Assembly: GCA_964486045.1 (NCBI GenBank)
Contig: CAZALK010000011.1
Location: forward strand, 1 to 64,000
Direction: 5' to 3'
Length of the DNA stretch: 64,000 bases
DNA from: an uncultured archaeon
GTDB lineage: Archaea; Asgardarchaeota; Lokiarchaeia; Sigyniarchaeales; SOKP01
Shown here: positions 44,221 to 53,302 of the stretch, piece by piece
Layout of the letters: each line of letters starts with the position of its first letter
How positions within the stretch are numbered: position 1 is the stretch's first letter
Position numbers and translations under genes: made by a program
The notes under the pieces: generated by a model
The model's database searches: none
What the model was told of the DNA's origin: nothing
The model's input: only the letters and a program-made list of their open reading frames with translations

Positions 44221-47200
44221 TTGTCAGAAAAACTTGAAAAAATAGAATACTTTAAAATGGACTTATTTAATAAAAAGTGGAAAATTAGAGCCAAAACATT
44301 ATTTATTTTATTGTTCGCAATAATCCTTCCACTAATTCTTAATTTATCAGTACAAAACTTTTCTAATGGAGAAAATAATAACTTAAGTTATGATGGCGAC
44401 AATTTACAAGACTTACAGGTCTCTTCGAATAATCCCACGAATGTAAATTACTTTAGCTTTTATAAAAATATTACTATTGATCATACTAATGTAGCAGGAT
44501 CAGGAAGTCATACAAACTTTCCCCTGCTTATCTCTCTTACTGATACAGATTTACATGATGATGTCCAACCAGATGGTGATGATATTGCTTTTGCTATAGA
44601 GGCAGATTGGTTAGATCATGAAATAGAACTATTTAATCCTAGCTACACTCCAACTAAAGCTCAATTGATTGTTTGGATCAGAATTCCTTCACTATCTACT
44701 TCTATTGATACTATAGTAACTATGTATTACGGAAATTCAACAATTAATTCACGCCAAAATCCTGATGGTGTATGGGATATAAACTACGAGGCAGTATACC
44801 ATTTACATGATGATTTTTTCGACTCATCTTCGTATAATAAAGACGGAACAAATGGAGGTTCCATAGATATAGCAGGAAAAATAGGTGATGGCCAAGATTT
44901 TGAACAAAATGATAATAGTGACAATATAGATATAGGAACTTGGAGCATCATAGGAACGGAGATTACGATCCAAGCTTGGACAAGGTTTGAGTCTTTTTCA
45001 GTAGGAGATGCTCGGATTTTATCAAAAAATTCGGGTATAAGTGATAACACTGAACACCATGTATGGATGCTTGGAACTAACACCGGTCCAAATAGGTTAA
45101 GAGGAAGAATTAAAACAGGAACAAGTGATTCTTCTGGGACTTCAACAGTAATTGCATCATCAGGTGAATTATCAACAGGTACATGGTATCTGACTACTTT
45201 AGTCTACGATGGTTCTAATATTAGATTTGTACTTAACGGAAATCCTGTAGGATCATTTGGTAAATCTGGATCATTACGTGTTAATAATTGGCCAATAACT
45301 ATTGGGAATAATCCTACCGGATTCAAGCCAATAGATGCAATCATAGATGAAGTTAGAATTTCATCAACAGTAAGATCTAACGATTGGTTGTTAACTGAAT
45401 ATAACAATCAAAATGACCCCAGCATATTTTACTCAATAGGAGTAGAATTGCAAGTATCTATTCAACCTTCAAACTCAGATTATTTTAATTATTATAAAAT
45501 AATAACCATTGATCATACACAGGTCTCTGGAACCGGAAGCCATATAAACTTTCCTCTGCTGATTTCTGTCCTTGATGGAGATCTACATGATGATGTCCAA
45601 AGTACAGGAAACGATATTGCTTTCTCGTCTAATGGTCAATGGCTAGATCACCAGATCGAGTTATTTAACCAAACATATAATAATACACACGCTCAGTTGT
45701 TTGCCTGGGTTCGTGTTCCTTTTTTATCAACAACAGCGGATACTAATGTGACTATGTATTATGGCAATTTTACAATGAACTCGCGTCAAAATCCTGATGG
45801 TGTTTGGCATTTAAATGATTATCCAACTGGTTCAAGCTTAGACATCAAAGATAGTTCTTTTCCCAATAGCGATGGATCTTCAAACTATATGACATCTACT
45901 GATCAAGTTCCTGGAATGATTGGTGGGGCATTAGACTTTGATGGGAATAATGATTATATTAATATTATAAATACCCCAGAATTGCAAATTACTGGAGAAA
46001 TTACCGTTCAATTATGGTTTAAAACAGATTTAGTAAAAAATGATTATTTATTTAATAAGATGGGAGGTAACGGATATCGTGGATGGGATTTAAGCTTCAA
46101 TGATGATGTGGGTATAACTCCTGATGGGTGGATAGAATTTCGTATTAATGATGATGGTTGGGATCCAGGAAGTAGTGTTCCAGATAGAAGAGTTAATGCT
46201 GGGCAATGGTATCAAGTAGTTGCGGTTTATAAACCAAATGATTACTTAAAGTTATTTTTAAATGGGTCTATGGTATCGGAAAATACAATTGGAATACCAC
46301 CTTCTATATTTGATCCATCATTACCTGTACGTATAGCTAAAAGAGCTGATGGGTCGGGTACAAATTACGATGGAGTTTTTGACGAAGTTCGTATTTCCAA
46401 TATATCACGGTCAGACGGGTGGATTAATACTGAATATAATAACCAGTTCGATCCTAATTTGTTTTACTCCATAGGGTTTGAAAAAGATGCGAAGGAAACA
46501 GTATATCTTGAAGCCCAAATCAATGCAATTGACTTATATAGCAATTTAATACCCGATGCAAATGTTTCCTTAATAAAAAATGAGCAATTGATAGCTAGTG
46601 ATATTACTAATTCTAATGGGAGTGTGTCATTTTCAACTATAATTAAAGGGGAGTACAATTTTACTGTCTCAATTACTTCTAATATTGAAAATATAACCGA
46701 AATTGTTAATGCAACCTCCCAATCAATCCTAATCGATAAAGGTTTCCAAACAATTAATTTAATCTGTAATGTTAGTGTGAATTTCCTTGAAGTTTTCGAT
46801 GTTGATGGATTGCCTGTCGAATCTGGATGGATAATCGTTGAAAACAGCTCAAATTTGCTTCAAAACTGCACTCTTGATAGTTCTGGAAAAACTACCTTTT
46901 GGTGGGTGAACACTACACCATATGAGTATAATTATACTGTATATTATCAAAACCAAGATTACAATCCTGATACGCAGGAATTGTTTTCAGGAAACATAAG
47001 TTCTCCCGATACGATAATTCAAGTTCAAACAGAATTAACTACTGTTGAGTTTACTATTTCGATTATTGGAGTTGGTGATCCAGTTGGAGGTGCTAAGCTT
47101 AAATTAAAAGTTAATAATACCTTAGGGAGTAGTATAGTAAACTTGACAACGGACATAAGTGGAAAAGCAACACTACGGTGGTTGAATTCTTCCGGTATTA

Positions 47201-50200
47201 ATGGTAATTATTCATTAGAAATTGAATTTTTCGAACAGAATAGATATTTTAATATAACATTTAACGGTCCCCCCGTAGTAGATAATACTAACTTTTCGGT
47301 AGGAAATAAAGAATCTAAAGAGTTTCGAATTGCAATTAATCTTGCAGATTTTCAGACAGAACTTATTTCATTTAACCCAATAGATTATATCCAAGTTACT
47401 TGGGGAACTCAAGTAAAGTTCAGAGTTTTATTCAATGTTACTAAAGCTGTTGGACTCCCACCAGAAATTTTGGGTCCTAAGTATGCAGATTCTGTAACAT
47501 TTCAATTGTTACTTGGAGGAAATTCAGTTTATTCCGGACAGATGTTGAATGAGATCGATTATATGGGTAAGCATTATGCTGTTATTGATTCAACATTAAT
47601 TAATAGTGATGTAACGTATGTTATTAAGATTAGTGCTCAAAAATCTGGGTTTACATTACCACCTGATTTATTTCTTCAGTTAAATATCCTAAATAATGAC
47701 TTAGAATTGAATCAATCAGAAAATAACGATTCTGCTTTGTCCGTGTTTTGGTCAGATAGCGTTGATATGTCGTTAAATTCTTATAGTAAAAATATTGAGA
47801 GTTTTACTGTAGAAAATGCGATTTTTCAGGATAATAATCACGAATTTAACTTCTCAATTCCTGATATAGAGACCAATTGGAACTTATCTCATGTTATTTT
47901 CAACATATATAATATTTCTTGGGACAATATTACATCTAATATAAACATAACAATCGAAGACCCTTATGGTAATTTCTATATGTATCATAAGGATAATCAT
48001 ACGGGATGGGATTATAGTCAAGGAACATGGACTGGAATTTCTCTTTTCTTAGATAAGGAGAGCCCTACCGGTGATAATAATTTTGATTTTATTATTGGGG
48101 GATCATATAATAATCCTGTCGATATAATTGCCGAATCTTATTTCATAAGAGATACAGAAAATGTCGAATATCCCAAATTCAATCAAACAGACAGTATATC
48201 TATTCCTACTGAAGTCGAAGGGTGGGCAATTGAGAGTATCACTTTTGAAATCTCAGATTGTTATGAAACCTCTACATGGGCTAAGGCAAATTTATCAACG
48301 CTAACTAGTCTGAATATAACCACTAATGAAGATATCAAGTATTCCCTAGATTTTGGATACGAAAATGGGACAGGATTCTTGACTATTGATGATCGAAACA
48401 TTTATCCTGTAGGAAGTCAATTCTTGTTTAATGTAGAAGGATATACAAGTTTAAGTTTCAACACAAAAATTAAAGTCCAATATGTTCAAGAATTCTATAG
48501 AAACCAATATTTTGAGACTTATAATACTACGATTACTTTGAAAGATATAAATACTGGGGGAATCATCCAACTTTCCGCTTTAAGAAATAGTTGGGACGAA
48601 AATAATGCACATCTATTTATTAAGGGTATAAATGATGGTGTTTTGTATTATTACCCAACTGATATTTTAATGGAGATTATAATTGGGGGAATTACTTATA
48701 GCATTTCGGATAATTCGTTAGGGGAGGGATCGTTTACATTAGAAGGTTTTACTAAAAATGAACTTCAGAATGCGGATATTAACACGAATATACCTGTGAA
48801 TTTTAGTTTATTTCTATTAATCGAGAATTCTAAAACTGTGTATTATAAAACATTAGGAACACTTAATTATATAATTCGAGAAGCACCTTCTGAATTTGGA
48901 GTAGTTTCTTATGATTCCATTATGGGATATTATTTCCAACATATCGATACTTCAATAGTAGATGCTGATGAATATACTGTAAGGTTTACTTTCCAAAAAG
49001 ATCATTTTGAAACTACGATAAAAGATCTTGAGTTAATAGTTCAGAATCGATTAACTTTGATAAACGGAGAAGTAGAATTTTATAGAAGTATTGAGAATGT
49101 TTATGTCAAAGATGGTATGAATTTTACCCTTTTTTACACTGATACGCTAACTGGGGCAAAAATCACCAATTTAAAAACTCAATTTTTCATATGGGAGAAA
49201 TATTCAAGTAATGGCAGTGTAATAGAAACTAATCAATCTACAATTTTCACATCAAAGGATAATTCATATATCTTAGATTTTGATACTGAAACAAGATCAG
49301 TCGGAGAATACCTACTAATTGCTACATTGGATAAGGAGAATTATGATTATAAAAATGCTATGATCCTTTTATCTATAAACAAACGAGAAATTGATTATAC
49401 TATAGGTAATAGTTTTAAAAATAAACAAACAAGTGTTGTACAGGGAAATGTTATTCCGATCATCATAAATTTAACTGATCCAACACAAGGGGATATACCA
49501 TTACTAAATACTACAATTTCTCTAACAATAGGTGGTGTGGAATATGAGATTAAGGAACTCGCCAATGGAACCTATAGATTTGATTATCAAACAAGTAATG
49601 TTAATGCATTTTTTACTTCGACAACACTTAGAGGAGTTATCAATATTTCAAAAGAGAATTATAATTCTGAAGAATTTAGTATCATAATTGTAGTTGAGAT
49701 GCATGAGATTTTTCCTGGAATCCCAACATTCTACTTCTTACTAATTGTATCTGCTGTAGTTGCTATTACTGCTAGCCTTGTAGGATATAAGGTATATAAA
49801 TACGCCAAGATACCCACATTTGTTAAAAAAGTTAGAGCTATGAAAAAAGCAATTGAGGGAGATAAATCAATTTCTGAATCGCTCCTTTATCGTACTAAAA
49901 ATGCATTTATAGGAGAGAGAGTCAAAGATAAATGGGAAGATATTGGATTATCAGTGGAAAATATTTTAGGTTTAAAATCCGTAAAAGATATGAAGTCTGT
50001 CAAAATTGAACGTAGGATCAGTGAAACTGTTGAACGAAGAAACATTAAACCTACAGGGTTGATTGTCATGAAATGGGATGAAAGAATAGGCACGGAAATC
50101 ACGGCTAAATATCCAGAAGAAACTGCAATTTCAGAGAAAACTCTGATGCAAATATATAGCACACATGAATACAGTGGCGAAAAAGGAATAATTAATTTGA

Positions 50201-51144
50201 CTTCAGGACTGTTAAATATTATATCTTACTATGCAGGACCAGAAAAGGGATACTACTTAGTTTTACTCCTAAATATTGATGATGATCCTGATGTTTACGA
50301 AGGTGGTATGGCAGATATCTTAAGAGTTCTTTTAGATAACATCAAAGATGATTCATACAAACAACTGTTACCGTCACTTTTCCAACGGTTATCGGTTTAT
50401 CCTTCTCTCAGCGATGAAGAAATCTTAGCACTTCACTATCAAGATGAGATCAAAAGGATGATTATAGAAAACTTGAGGGATGTCGGTGTAATTACCAAAT
50501 CTGAATTAATGGTTTGGCTCAGAGAAAAATATACCGAAGGGTTTATTGACATAGACGCTACAATGCTTGAACTTCTAAAAAGAGATATTATAAAACAAGT
50601 TTCAGTTAAAGGAATCGCATCTGAATTGATACTGCTTACCAATGATTTTTTCATGCTTCGCGTTCCGCCTGCTAAGCTATTCGCAGATCCTGCAATTAAA
50701 GGATTACCAAGTAAATTTATAAAAGAATATAGAGAAGAGATTACAAGATTCTTCCAAAAATACCACCCAACAGCTGAAGACAACTTAAAAGTTATTGAAA
50801 TTTTAATAAACCCCCAGGCATACGAAACAATTAGATTATTAAGATCTTCAATAGTTACTTTGAGGGACTTAGAAAAGCTGAAGAAAAAAGGAGTGGAAGA
50901 TGTATATAGTATTTTGAAATTACTGTGGGATAACCAAATAGTTAAAGTTTTTAGAGATGAGAAAGATATTGAATATTATGCTCTCTTGTCTGATTTTTAT
51001 ATGGATTTAATATTTCCGAAGTATCTGTTAACAGTGATAAAGACAGCATATGAGCAAAAATCTCAGGTAAATAATGTATTAACTGAATATCTTAAAGTAT
51101 TAGAGGACACATACTTTGATTTAAAATCTCAAGAAAAAACCTAA
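44221..51144 (-). other. No substantial minus-strand gene in this interval (the + strand CDS is the real gene)
   Basis: Only short antisense shadow ORFs are present. Confidence 0.3.
44221..51144 (+). CDS. Giant (2307 aa) single-pass surface protein: two DUF2341+LamG units, Ig-like stalk, TM helix and cytoplasmic longin-like/helical domain
   Basis: Signal anchor, then two repeats of K.ITIDHT.V.G.GSH.NFP+LIS...DIAF...WL.H.IE...W+R+P...MYYGN followed by LamG-like DEVRIS...RS..W..TEYNNQ. TM helix at about 49720-49800. C-terminal domain of about 440 aa. Confidence 0.8.
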   Translation: MSEKLEKIEYFKMDLFNKKWKIRAKTLFILLFAIILPLILNLSVQNFSNGENNNLSYDGDNLQDLQVSSNNPTNVNYFSFYKNITIDHTNVAGSGSHTNFPLLISLTDTDLHDDVQPDGDDIAFAIEADWLDHEIELFNPSYTPTKAQLIVWIRIPSLSTSIDTIVTMYYGNSTINSRQNPDGVWDINYEAVYHLHDDFFDSSSYNKDGTNGGSIDIAGKIGDGQDFEQNDNSDNIDIGTWSIIGTEITIQAWTRFESFSVGDARILSKNSGISDNTEHHVWMLGTNTGPNRLRGRIKTGTSDSSGTSTVIASSGELSTGTWYLTTLVYDGSNIRFVLNGNPVGSFGKSGSLRVNNWPITIGNNPTGFKPIDAIIDEVRISSTVRSNDWLLTEYNNQNDPSIFYSIGVELQVSIQPSNSDYFNYYKIITIDHTQVSGTGSHINFPLLISVLDGDLHDDVQSTGNDIAFSSNGQWLDHQIELFNQTYNNTHAQLFAWVRVPFLSTTADTNVTMYYGNFTMNSRQNPDGVWHLNDYPTGSSLDIKDSSFPNSDGSSNYMTSTDQVPGMIGGALDFDGNNDYINIINTPELQITGEITVQLWFKTDLVKNDYLFNKMGGNGYRGWDLSFNDDVGITPDGWIEFRINDDGWDPGSSVPDRRVNAGQWYQVVAVYKPNDYLKLFLNGSMVSENTIGIPPSIFDPSLPVRIAKRADGSGTNYDGVFDEVRISNISRSDGWINTEYNNQFDPNLFYSIGFEKDAKETVYLEAQINAIDLYSNLIPDANVSLIKNEQLIASDITNSNGSVSFSTIIKGEYNFTVSITSNIENITEIVNATSQSILIDKGFQTINLICNVSVNFLEVFDVDGLPVESGWIIVENSSNLLQNCTLDSSGKTTFWWVNTTPYEYNYTVYYQNQDYNPDTQELFSGNISSPDTIIQVQTELTTVEFTISIIGVGDPVGGAKLKLKVNNTLGSSIVNLTTDISGKATLRWLNSSGINGNYSLEIEFFEQNRYFNITFNGPPVVDNTNFSVGNKESKEFRIAINLADFQTELISFNPIDYIQVTWGTQVKFRVLFNVTKAVGLPPEILGPKYADSVTFQLLLGGNSVYSGQMLNEIDYMGKHYAVIDSTLINSDVTYVIKISAQKSGFTLPPDLFLQLNILNNDLELNQSENNDSALSVFWSDSVDMSLNSYSKNIESFTVENAIFQDNNHEFNFSIPDIETNWNLSHVIFNIYNISWDNITSNINITIEDPYGNFYMYHKDNHTGWDYSQGTWTGISLFLDKESPTGDNNFDFIIGGSYNNPVDIIAESYFIRDTENVEYPKFNQTDSISIPTEVEGWAIESITFEISDCYETSTWAKANLSTLTSLNITTNEDIKYSLDFGYENGTGFLTIDDRNIYPVGSQFLFNVEGYTSLSFNTKIKVQYVQEFYRNQYFETYNTTITLKDINTGGIIQLSALRNSWDENNAHLFIKGINDGVLYYYPTDILMEIIIGGITYSISDNSLGEGSFTLEGFTKNELQNADINTNIPVNFSLFLLIENSKTVYYKTLGTLNYIIREAPSEFGVVSYDSIMGYYFQHIDTSIVDADEYTVRFTFQKDHFETTIKDLELIVQNRLTLINGEVEFYRSIENVYVKDGMNFTLFYTDTLTGAKITNLKTQFFIWEKYSSNGSVIETNQSTIFTSKDNSYILDFDTETRSVGEYLLIATLDKENYDYKNAMILLSINKREIDYTIGNSFKNKQTSVVQGNVIPIIINLTDPTQGDIPLLNTTISLTIGGVEYEIKELANGTYRFDYQTSNVNAFFTSTTLRGVINISKENYNSEEFSIIIVVEMHEIFPGIPTFYFLLIVSAVVAITASLVGYKVYKYAKIPTFVKKVRAMKKAIEGDKSISESLLYRTKNAFIGERVKDKWEDIGLSVENILGLKSVKDMKSVKIERRISETVERRNIKPTGLIVMKWDERIGTEITAKYPEETAISEKTLMQIYSTHEYSGEKGIINLTSGLLNIISYYAGPEKGYYLVLLLNIDDDPDVYEGGMADILRVLLDNIKDDSYKQLLPSLFQRLSVYPSLSDEEILALHYQDEIKRMIIENLRDVGVITKSELMVWLREKYTEGFIDIDATMLELLKRDIIKQVSVKGIASELILLTNDFFMLRVPPAKLFADPAIKGLPSKFIKEYREEITRFFQKYHPTAEDNLKVIEILINPQAYETIRLLRSSIVTLRDLEKLKKKGVEDVYSILKLLWDNQIVKVFRDEKDIEYYALLSDFYMDLIFPKYLLTVIKTAYEQKSQVNNVLTEYLKVLEDTYFDLKSQEKT

Positions 51145-51224
51145 AATCAATTCTCAAGATATAATCTCCTTTATTTTTAAATTTTAGTTCGAATTTTTTT
51201 ATTATAAATCCGTACCCGAGCAAG

Positions 51225-51278
51225 GCTTTCATCAAATAACTTTCCTTGGAGGGAATTTTTTTATTTGAATCATTAAAA
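51225..51278 (-). promoter_or_regulatory. Putative eukaryote-like SECIS element in the 3' UTR
   Basis: Minus strand AUGAU-UCAAAUAA-AAAAA-UUCC(CUCCAA)GGAA-AG-UUAUUUGA-UGAA: AUGA/GA core, perfect 8-bp helix, unpaired A run and apical mini-stem. The core starts 16 nt after the stop codon. Confidence 0.75.
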
Positions 51279-51289
51279 TAGATTTTTTC

Positions 51290-52210
51290 TCAATCACAAT
51301 CTTCTGCTTGCTGCCGATTAATTTTTATAAATGCTTCTTCCTGTAGATTTCTTTGCACTGATTTAACCGATCTATTTACTTGGTTTAAATATCTCATTGC
51401 ATTAATCTTTCCATCTCTTATATTTTGAACGAGTTCTTCCCTGTTAAGACCACCAGAAATAACTAATGCCGTTTGAAAGGAGTTATCCGGCGCTAATGTT
51501 TTAAAATCAACTTGTAAAGCAGATAATATTTCTCCAGCTTCGCTATATAAGGTGTTAGACAGATTTAATCTTCCTAAATCAACTTTAAAATCTTTTGTTA
51601 AACAGGTTTCGAAAAAAGTAGATTTTGTGATGGGTGAAAACCCCCCATGTATCCCCGAATCATCGTATTGGTAAATTATATCATACTTTTCATCATATCC
51701 AGATAGATCATTATCATATCCTGAAAGACCATTAATATCGAAATCGAATATGAAATACATTGAGAAATCATTTAAGTCATAATCTGAAGTATTTTTTATT
51801 GTGAAAAAAGTATTAATGTACGGTACTTTTGGACGGTTAAAAATATCTATGAATAGTCGAACATATTCATTTTTTCTAAAAGTAATCGGTTTAAGCTTTT
51901 CTTCTTCAATCATCTTTTTTAAATACTCAGAGATATTAAAATCCAATGTTATTCGATTTATTGTAGAACCCATTCTAGTATTGACCATATTATAAATTGG
52001 TGTGGGCTCAATATTCTTTAACAAAACAGGAATTGTGCCAATTCTCTCATCTTCTAGTTTAAAACTAAACCATGGCCCTGCTAATTCTTGTTCAGCTAGA
52101 TATATTAAGTGTCTTTCGTCAAATTTTAATTCTTTTATTGAGAATCCCATAAGATACCCAGCAGCGTTTCAAGTGGCAAATATTTCATTGAATTGAACTT
52201 TTAATACAAT
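51290..52210 (-). CDS. Candidate selenoprotein of unknown function (306 aa, Sec at residue 14)
   Basis: SD AGGAGGT (52226-52220), ATT at 52210, frame (M)VLKVQFNEIFAT-TGA-NAAGYL-MGFS continuous with the tracked ORF. TGA at 52171-52169. SECIS-like element downstream. Confidence 0.7.
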
Positions 52211-52318
52211 CTTTTTTTAACCTCCTTTACACAATTTTGGTTTTTATTATTTAATTTTAGATTTTGCAACTAATATTAGAAAGAAGACAATTTGATAAAA
52301 ATATTTGTCTTAAAAGGA

Positions 52319-53302
52319 TTAAAGAGATTCTATTACTCTATAAGCAATATACAAAAAAGCATCATTAACATTTTCACCCGACTTGGCTGATGTAAGAATA
52401 TAGTGGAAATCAAACTTTTTAGCTATATCTCTTATTTCATCTTTACTAATTACTAGTTTATCTGATAAATCAGATTTATTTCCAACTATAACAACAGGAA
52501 TGTTTTTTGGGATTGAAGATTTTATATCATTGTACCATTTTTCAACACTTTTAAGATGATCTGGGCGAGTTCTATCAATTATTATAAATGCCGCATTAGC
52601 ACCATTGTAAAATCTAGCTCTATAAGGAGCCATTTGAAAACTTTGCCCCCCGATGTCCCAAATAATGAAGTTCATCTTATTATCCTCAGTCAAATTAATT
52701 GTCTTCTTCGATATCTGAACACCAATTGTTGAAATATAATCCCTTTTAAACGAATTTTCCACGAATCTTCTAATAAGAGATGTTTTACCTACTTGGTAAT
52801 CACCTGTCAAAATTATTTTATTTGAATATTCACCGGCTAATTTTGGAAGAGCTCCAGCTCTGGTTTTTGCGAGAGCTTTAATAATTTCAGGGATTTCAGT
52901 AGATACGTCCTCATTCCCATCTAGAATTAACTCGATCTTTCCAGCAATATGTTCCGAATATACTTTTAATTCAATATCACTTGTAGATTGATCTGTAACC
53001 GTAGTCAAGATCGATTGTGGACCTTGTGAACAATAGGCAAACTTTCTTTCCCCTGTTGAGGTCATATTAAAAAAATTACCTTGAGACCCAAATTCATCTT
53101 TAATTCGGTCTATGTAATTATCAAGAATAGCGGAAATTGCGCCTAGAACTGAATCTGATTCTTCCTGATTTCCTTCTTTGAATTCTGAAGCGATTATAAA
53201 ACCATCTCTATCGCAAATCGCGACACCTAATATGCCTTCTACTTCTTCGAAGTAATTTTTCAAAATCCCTCTTAAGTGTTTTGCACTTGGGAGTTTTTCC
53301 AT
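52319..53302 (-). CDS. Roadblock/LC7 domain fused to Rab-like small GTPase (paralog of 43027-43971)
   Basis: EGILGVAICDRDGFII, GDYQVGKTS, TIGVQ, WDIGGQ, NKSD and SAK motifs. Confidence 0.88.
   Translation of the reverse strand: MEKLPSAKHLRGILKNYFEEVEGILGVAICDRDGFIIASEFKEGNQEESDSVLGAISAILDNYIDRIKDEFGSQGNFFNMTSTGERKFAYCSQGPQSILTTVTDQSTSDIELKVYSEHIAGKIELILDGNEDVSTEIPEIIKALAKTRAGALPKLAGEYSNKIILTGDYQVGKTSLIRRFVENSFKRDYISTIGVQISKKTINLTEDNKMNFIIWDIGGQSFQMAPYRARFYNGANAAFIIIDRTRPDHLKSVEKWYNDIKSSIPKNIPVVIVGNKSDLSDKLVISKDEIRDIAKKFDFHYILTSAKSGENVNDAFLYIAYRVIESL

Follow-up and report, generated by a model that had tools for sequence, protein, structure and literature searches.

The reverse strand of the window, by which we mean the whole 64,000-nt stretch of DNA analysed (C11:1-64000 of a 5.18-Mb genome), encodes a 306-residue protein that very probably represents a real new family of Asgard selenoproteins. 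We put the probability that this gene reads UGA codon 14 as selenocysteine (Sec) at roughly 0.9, judging from comparative sequence evidence. The recoding is of a known kind; the family, the fold and the start codon are new to Asgard recoding. Its features in the window, all on the minus strand, are as follows:

51290..52210, minus: full coding sequence, 306 aa with putative Sec14; predicted β-supersandwich followed by C-terminal helices
52220..52226, minus: Shine-Dalgarno (SD) sequence AGGAGGT, with its GAGG common to orthologs
52208..52210, minus: ATT, a non-AUG start codon, ATA in most orthologs
52169..52171, minus: in-frame TGA, candidate Sec codon 14; invariant in close loci and aligned with Cys
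52148..52150, minus: ATG of Met21, start of the gene caller's truncated 286-aa product found in public collections
51296..51298, minus: Cys305, candidate resolving cysteine
51290..51292, minus: terminal stop TGA, 16 nt before the core of the Sec insertion (SECIS) element

The earlier note had placed the SD sequence 9 nt before an in-frame ATT and a single TGA (52171-52169, within FAT-U-NAAGYL) as the only interruption of the frame; both placements hold. We refer below to genomes by family: f1 is that of the window, f2 includes P. syntrophicum and L. ossiferum, f12 is Thorarchaeia and f21 is a further Asgard family. A GAGG motif lies 7-14 nt (mode 10) upstream of codon 1 in 75/75 orthologs, with codon 1 being ATA in 68, ATC in 3, ATT in 1, TTG in 1 and AAG in 2; ortholog stop codons are TAA (63), TAG (10) and TGA (7). 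The ATT/ATA register coincides with the ATG of eight f2 loci that carry a Cys form of the gene, exactly 13 codons before the Cys site. In a rough census of the genome, ATT, ATA, ATC and CTG behind strong SDs open 35 long ORFs compared to 91 for ATG, TTG and GTG, which suggests that non-AUG initiation is frequent in this genome. Since ATT, ATA and ATC are common behind strong SDs, an AUU start for the selenoprotein gene is plausible. The "hypothetical" gene very probably starts 20 codons upstream of the called Met21; in public records, members of the family are called hypothetical and their Sec forms are truncated.

Conservation around the TGA carries much of the argument for recoding. The codon is kept in all 80 close Lokiarchaeia loci (63-73% identity), 75 of which are intact, one is cut at a contig edge and four contain an insertion after the TGA. 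Coding-like conservation upstream of the TGA, which the earlier note had expected, is present: codons 2-13 have codon-position entropies of 0.78/0.29/1.45, with variation mostly at third positions. Single-base differences in these codons are synonymous in 8324 cases and non-synonymous in 4231, and the Sec frame is open in 71/71 distinct sequences, while the other two frames hit stops in 68 and 52 of the 71. The UGA is thus conserved among orthologs with a coding signature on both of its sides.

The anticipated alternation of Cys and TGA at residue 14 was likewise found. Site 14 is the second Cys of a CxxC motif in 10 f2 loci, including P. syntrophicum DSAG12_02345 and L. ossiferum NEF87_004727, and a TGA occupies the aligned site in f3, f4, f12 and f21, where it forms part of a CxxU motif. 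Among the Thorarchaeia, TGA is present in 16/16 loci fetched, with CxxU in 15 of them; CxxU was seen in three f21 loci. Within f1 the motif is xxTU, the first Cys being replaced by a hydrophobic residue across the whole of f1. The proposed absence of a CxxU motif is therefore accurate for f1, but not for the wider family, which has CxxU (Thorarchaeia, f3, f4, f21) or CxxC (f2) on a fold other than thioredoxin.

These alignments also bear on two readings that do without Sec. A changed code, with TGA read as Trp or another residue, and a sequencing artefact were both excluded, their probability being close to nil: TGA closes 341 long ORFs as an ordinary stop and TGG usage is normal, the residue aligned to the TGA is Cys and never Trp, and the same TGA is present in more than 100 independent genomes. 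Were the UGA instead a true stop, a 13-codon leader would precede re-initiation at Met21 to give a 286-aa protein, and the hairpin downstream of the gene would have some other role. Met21 is indeed kept throughout f1 and public gene calls begin there, but we consider such a leader very improbable. The Cys forms have Phe in place of Met21, and no SD-like motif lies within 20 nt of Met21 in 75/75 orthologs, which bears out the remark in the earlier note that the called ATG (52150) has no comparable SD. Furthermore, the 20 residues upstream of Met21 read as normal coding sequence in f2 and make up strand β1 in the model, the codon at site 14 is always TGA and never TAA or TAG, and the SECIS element tracks the Sec forms.

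The host genome is equipped for Sec insertion, as the earlier note had proposed to verify. It contains tRNA-Sec, with the SepSecS gene adjoining it, and two SelD genes with an in-frame TGA (Sec-SelD). The elongation factor EFSec and the kinase PSTK were found only as "-like" genes below cut-offs: the EFSec-like gene, on the same contig as tRNA-Sec and SepSecS, scores 231 bits, just under the cut-off for bacterial SelB, and the PSTK-like gene falls below its curated cut-off. Also present are selenoprotein genes of the VhuD and Prx-like kinds, each with a SECIS element, so that at least three Sec machinery genes occur together with known selenoproteins. The second SelD gene (L049, G000:C1:758869-759897) has an insertion of about 10 codons with an extra TGA that is absent in most relatives and is possibly an intron of the bulge-helix-bulge (BHB) kind.

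Directly behind the stop codon, folding, covariation and covariance models identify a type II eukaryote-like SECIS element:

51207..51284, minus: type II SECIS element, full extent
51273-51270, minus: AUGA, with the GA at 51230-51229
51268-51261/51239-51232, minus: 8-bp main helix, with an A-run above it
51255-51252/51245-51242, minus: mini-stem UUCC/GGAA
51284-51280/51211-51207, minus: lower stem, found by folding with more flanking sequence
51225-51215, minus: 3' side hairpin, inside the lower stem

The type II layout originally drawn just 3' of the stop (AUGA, helix, mini-stem and GA) was confirmed as the core, but its extent was too short, as the element also includes the lower stem and side hairpin. 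With these two parts, its layout matches that of the SelD, VhuD and Prx SECIS elements in the genome. A side hairpin 3' of the GA and within the lower stem is seen in all known SECIS elements of the genome (L058-L064), in SelD loci L065-L087 and in the window; the accessible parts of the published SECIS consensus descriptions lack this small hairpin. The terminal UGA is probably not recoded, being too close to the SECIS element under the minimal-distance rule proposed for UGA recoding (PMC4989117).

The hairpin is no more stable than its shuffled counterparts (z 0.43; -12.0 compared to a shuffled mean of -12.1 kcal/mol), and an Rfam scan returned nothing relevant at its position, so the case against chance is a comparative one. 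Across 40 orthologs, 93% of cells are paired and 10 pairs show two-sided change; 0/500 shuffles scored as high, and slid controls reached 23-48%. The lower stem and side hairpin contribute most of this covariation, which is among related sequences; the main helix is almost invariant, with a few compensatory swaps. In one ortholog (L175) the type II element is replaced by one of type I.

Covariance models gave results of varying strength. MAFFT gave no usable alignment of the mixed known SECIS elements, so a model was built from SelD elements only; it puts the hairpin in first place within the window, though at a weak score (17.5 bits, E 0.066), and missed it in a genome-wide search, a test for which it is too family-specific. 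The conservation of the hairpin, on which the earlier note made its reading depend, is evident in covariation among orthologs, with the independent SelD model weakly positive. A model built from the f1 elements recovers the known VhuD SECIS genome-wide (E 0.0017). It does not detect the Thorarchaeia elements, which a looser pattern does: that pattern falls on the stop codon in 14/16 Thorarchaeia loci and at the gene end in both f21 loci tested, and occurs behind 0/10 Cys forms. A hand-made descriptor gave 50-77 hits in the genome and is not specific. Three f4 CxxU genes (L031, L034, L035) are without a standard SECIS element and share a 3' hairpin (CCAAG/CUUGG with a 5-nt loop) that is perhaps a variant SECIS.

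Other candidate SECIS elements were observed in the genome. A second candidate for an unlisted selenoprotein is an ORF of about 160 aa (L215:548-1042, G000:C25:38547-39041, plus strand; also L220-L227) in which two TGAs stand side by side (HAD-U-U-ADVM); it has a conserved type I SECIS, was matched in 24/26 genomes, always with two TGAs, and has no NCBIfam match. Well-formed type I SECIS elements also lie behind two short membrane-like TGA ORFs, L057 (G000:C3:142939), for which no DNA match was found in relatives, and L216 (G000:C35:3783), whose element scores E 2.4e-4 with SECIS model R2.

The gene resembles known Asgard selenoprotein genes (PMC4989117, PMC11227280) in its in-frame UGA at a Cys-aligned site and, in the Thorarchaeia members, in an AUGA that overlaps the stop codon. 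With the type II SECIS of Asgard SelD/SPS it shares the AUGA/GA core, A-run, short helix and apical mini-stem near the stop. Type II elements are mainly known from selD, whereas this one stands behind another family. Five Loki selenoprotein families were listed in 2016 (Mariotti 2016, PMC4989117), and the largest survey of Asgard archaea, whose queries came from known families only, later found seven (Huang 2024, PMC11227280): SelD, FrhA/VhuU, HdrA, FrhD/VhuD, Prx-like, AhpF-N-like and DsbA-like. Of 119 prokaryotic selenoprotein families, 11 occur in archaea (PMC13188914), and nearly all archaeal families are marked as common to bacteria. Unlike the known Asgard genes, the present one encodes a protein that matches none of the seven families and starts with AUU/AUA. 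Its lack of resemblance to known Asgard selenoproteins, pointed out at the outset, is upheld: Pfam, NCBIfam and PDB sequence searches with the protein and with alignment members returned no family, and it is absent, compared by name and domain, from open-access selenoprotein surveys of 2016-2026, including those of Asgard archaea. Our literature search found no paper that names the locus tags of the cultured orthologs.

In a search of the phylum, the family was matched in 63/68 f1 genomes, 5/7 f2 genomes, 67/76 Thorarchaeia genomes (some of them only via a weak, large paralogue) and 5/5 f21 genomes, with no match in many other Asgard families searched.

Structure prediction gave a confident model both for the window protein (pLDDT 88, with residues 1-20 at low confidence) and for the L. 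ossiferum Cys form (pLDDT 91). Each is a β-supersandwich followed by helices; neither has a thioredoxin fold. The protein is predicted to be a stand-alone, galactose-mutarotase-like β-supersandwich. It matches the N-domains of GH15, GH94 and GH116 enzymes from residue 1 onwards (Z 18-20, rmsd 2.5-3.3 Å over 214-243 residues), which agrees with the carbohydrate-enzyme-like β-sandwich suggested in the earlier note; the match to aldose 1-epimerase (galactose mutarotase) is weaker (Z 11-13). Domains of GH15 glucoamylase/glucodextranase, GH94 phosphorylases and GH116 glucosidase (1ulv, 1lf6, 2cqs, 8bou, 7w2t, 8rf9) share both the fold and the helices that follow it. The Asgard protein differs from them in its low identity (8-14%), in standing alone without the catalytic (α/α)6 barrel, the chain ending about 25 residues after the linker helix, and in carrying Sec/Cys sites foreign to those domains. 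In the Cys-form model, residues 3-12 and 19-30 are strands with the CxxC at their turn, so the N-terminal extension forms part of the fold. By the same models, the 286-aa call is predicted to lack part of the fold, and Sec to sit in the loop of the N-terminal β1-β2 hairpin.

The sequence shows no evident signal peptide or membrane helix. An ESM Atlas feature search returned only unnamed Promethearchaeota/Thorarchaeota clusters, with a GH94 supersandwich as a weak lead (0.82). Weak matches to UBD and L10 were rejected. Distant HMM matches within large secreted proteins, which cover only the core strands (approximately positions 100-270) and not the Sec region, were set aside as uninformative on function.

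The distribution of cysteines suggests what the Sec residue may do. The cysteine of the C-terminal DCD, singled out early on, corresponds to Cys305 and is invariant in 27/27 Lokiarchaeia rows; Thorarchaeia and f21, which retain CxxU, lack it. The pattern is therefore U plus a C-terminal Cys in f1, CxxU alone in Thorarchaeia and f21, and both (three Cys/Sec) in f2 and f4. Almost all aligned full-length members have at least one Cys besides U/C14, L187 being the exception. This complementary pattern is best fitted by a selenol nucleophile with an exchangeable resolving Cys. If Sec is inserted, the logic of the motif makes it slightly more probable than not that Sec14 is a redox-active nucleophile that forms a selenylsulfide with this Cys. 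Thorarchaeia and f21 would use the Cys of CxxU as the partner, and f1, where the first Cys has been lost, its invariant C-terminal Cys305; the supersandwich would provide a scaffold for binding a substrate or partner. CxxU/CxxC redox selenoproteins of the thioredoxin-fold and SelW-like kinds (PMC13188914) are comparable in having a near-N-terminal CxxU, CxxC or xxTU motif and in exchanging Cys and Sec between lineages. They differ in their thioredoxin fold, the motif here being on a β-hairpin and not at a helix start.

Sec14 might alternatively be a ligand of a metal or Fe-S centre, in one half of a knuckle whose other half would come from the C-terminal Cys or a second subunit. VhuD and HdrA are likened cases, the CxxC/U motif is followed by G at the tip of a β-hairpin, some homologs (P0021, P0023, P0035) contain CxxCxxC, and f2 and f4 have a total of three Cys/Sec. 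However, structural knuckles rarely tolerate loss of their first Cys to a hydrophobic residue, the replacement seen in the whole of f1, and the Thorarchaeia have only the CxxU pair. We regard a ligand role as unlikely.

The genomic neighbourhood invites a further alternative. The following gene was identified by Pfam:

52319..53302, minus: Roadblock/Rab-like GTPase gene, upstream of the selenoprotein gene

It lies directly upstream in 72/75 close f1 loci and in the f2 Cys forms, and was not seen there in the f4, Thorarchaeia and f21 loci examined; it is a conserved neighbour, listed here as context. On the other side, converging on the selenoprotein gene, lies a plus-strand gene (44221-51144); its 2307-aa product has DUF2341/LamG repeats, a single membrane helix and a cytoplasmic tail. 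The selenoprotein could be a redox regulator of the Roadblock-Rab GTPase, whose gene it follows in f1 and f2, or a carrier or sensor of selenium/sulfur linked to the supply of Sec, given that the f21 gene adjoins a GcvH-like gene and converges on SepSecS, and that a UGA at codon 14 ties expression to selenium. Neither neighbour is common to all lineages, however, and Cys forms occur in genomes that still have SepSecS (G044, G055). We rate these roles as unlikely, slightly below that of a metal ligand.

Some relatives carry an additional element at the Sec codon. An insertion of 28-32 nt occurs one base after the TGA in five genomes of the genus (loci L129, L141/L196, L150, L160 and L047; genomes G023, G317, G025, G031 and G032), and the window gene has none. 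The 4-bp central helix of each insertion (CUUG/CAAG) takes in part of the Sec codon; there are also two 3-nt bulges and an inner stem, and the outer exon helix is weak in some. If the insertion is cut out at the canonical bulge sites, the frame is restored in 5/5, and all five genomes encode the splicing endonuclease EndA. We infer from these features that the insertions are BHB introns removed by splicing. They resemble the cbf5 intron of crenarchaeal pre-mRNA (Yokobori 2009, PMC2738675) as short coding-sequence introns with a 4-bp helix and two 3-nt bulges. They differ in lying one base after a Sec codon that also belongs to the motif, and in their patchy occurrence within one genus. A quick tree places the carriers in four positions separated by supported branches, which implies either repeated gain of the intron or much loss.

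We can now propose how the gene would be expressed. The ribosome would bind the SD sequence and begin translation at AUU. On reaching codon 14 it would receive Sec-tRNA(Sec) from the Sec-specific elongation factor, an insertion licensed by the type II SECIS element about 900 nt downstream. Translation would then stop at the terminal UGA, codon 307, releasing a 306-aa cytoplasmic protein, whereas without selenium the sole product would be a 13-residue peptide. The fullest version of our proposal is of an ancient, Asgard-specific selenoenzyme that performs selenol redox chemistry on a supersandwich of glycoside-hydrolase type, with its resolving Cys swapped between CxxU and the C-terminus and its Sec codon a hot spot where tRNA-type introns have repeatedly entered the mRNA; we rate its chances a little short of even.

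The cultured Lokiarchaeia carry the Cys form, which makes the proposal testable, and an archaeal SECIS reporter exists (PMC9622424). More generally, Asgard genes escape gene callers through non-AUG starts, early UGA codons and introns in the mRNA, and the family, with its many type I and type II SECIS elements, provides material for examining how the eukaryotic system arose. If our reading is true, the family would rank among the most widespread selenoproteins of Asgard archaea, and would place Sec on a fold that is not listed for any prokaryotic selenoprotein.
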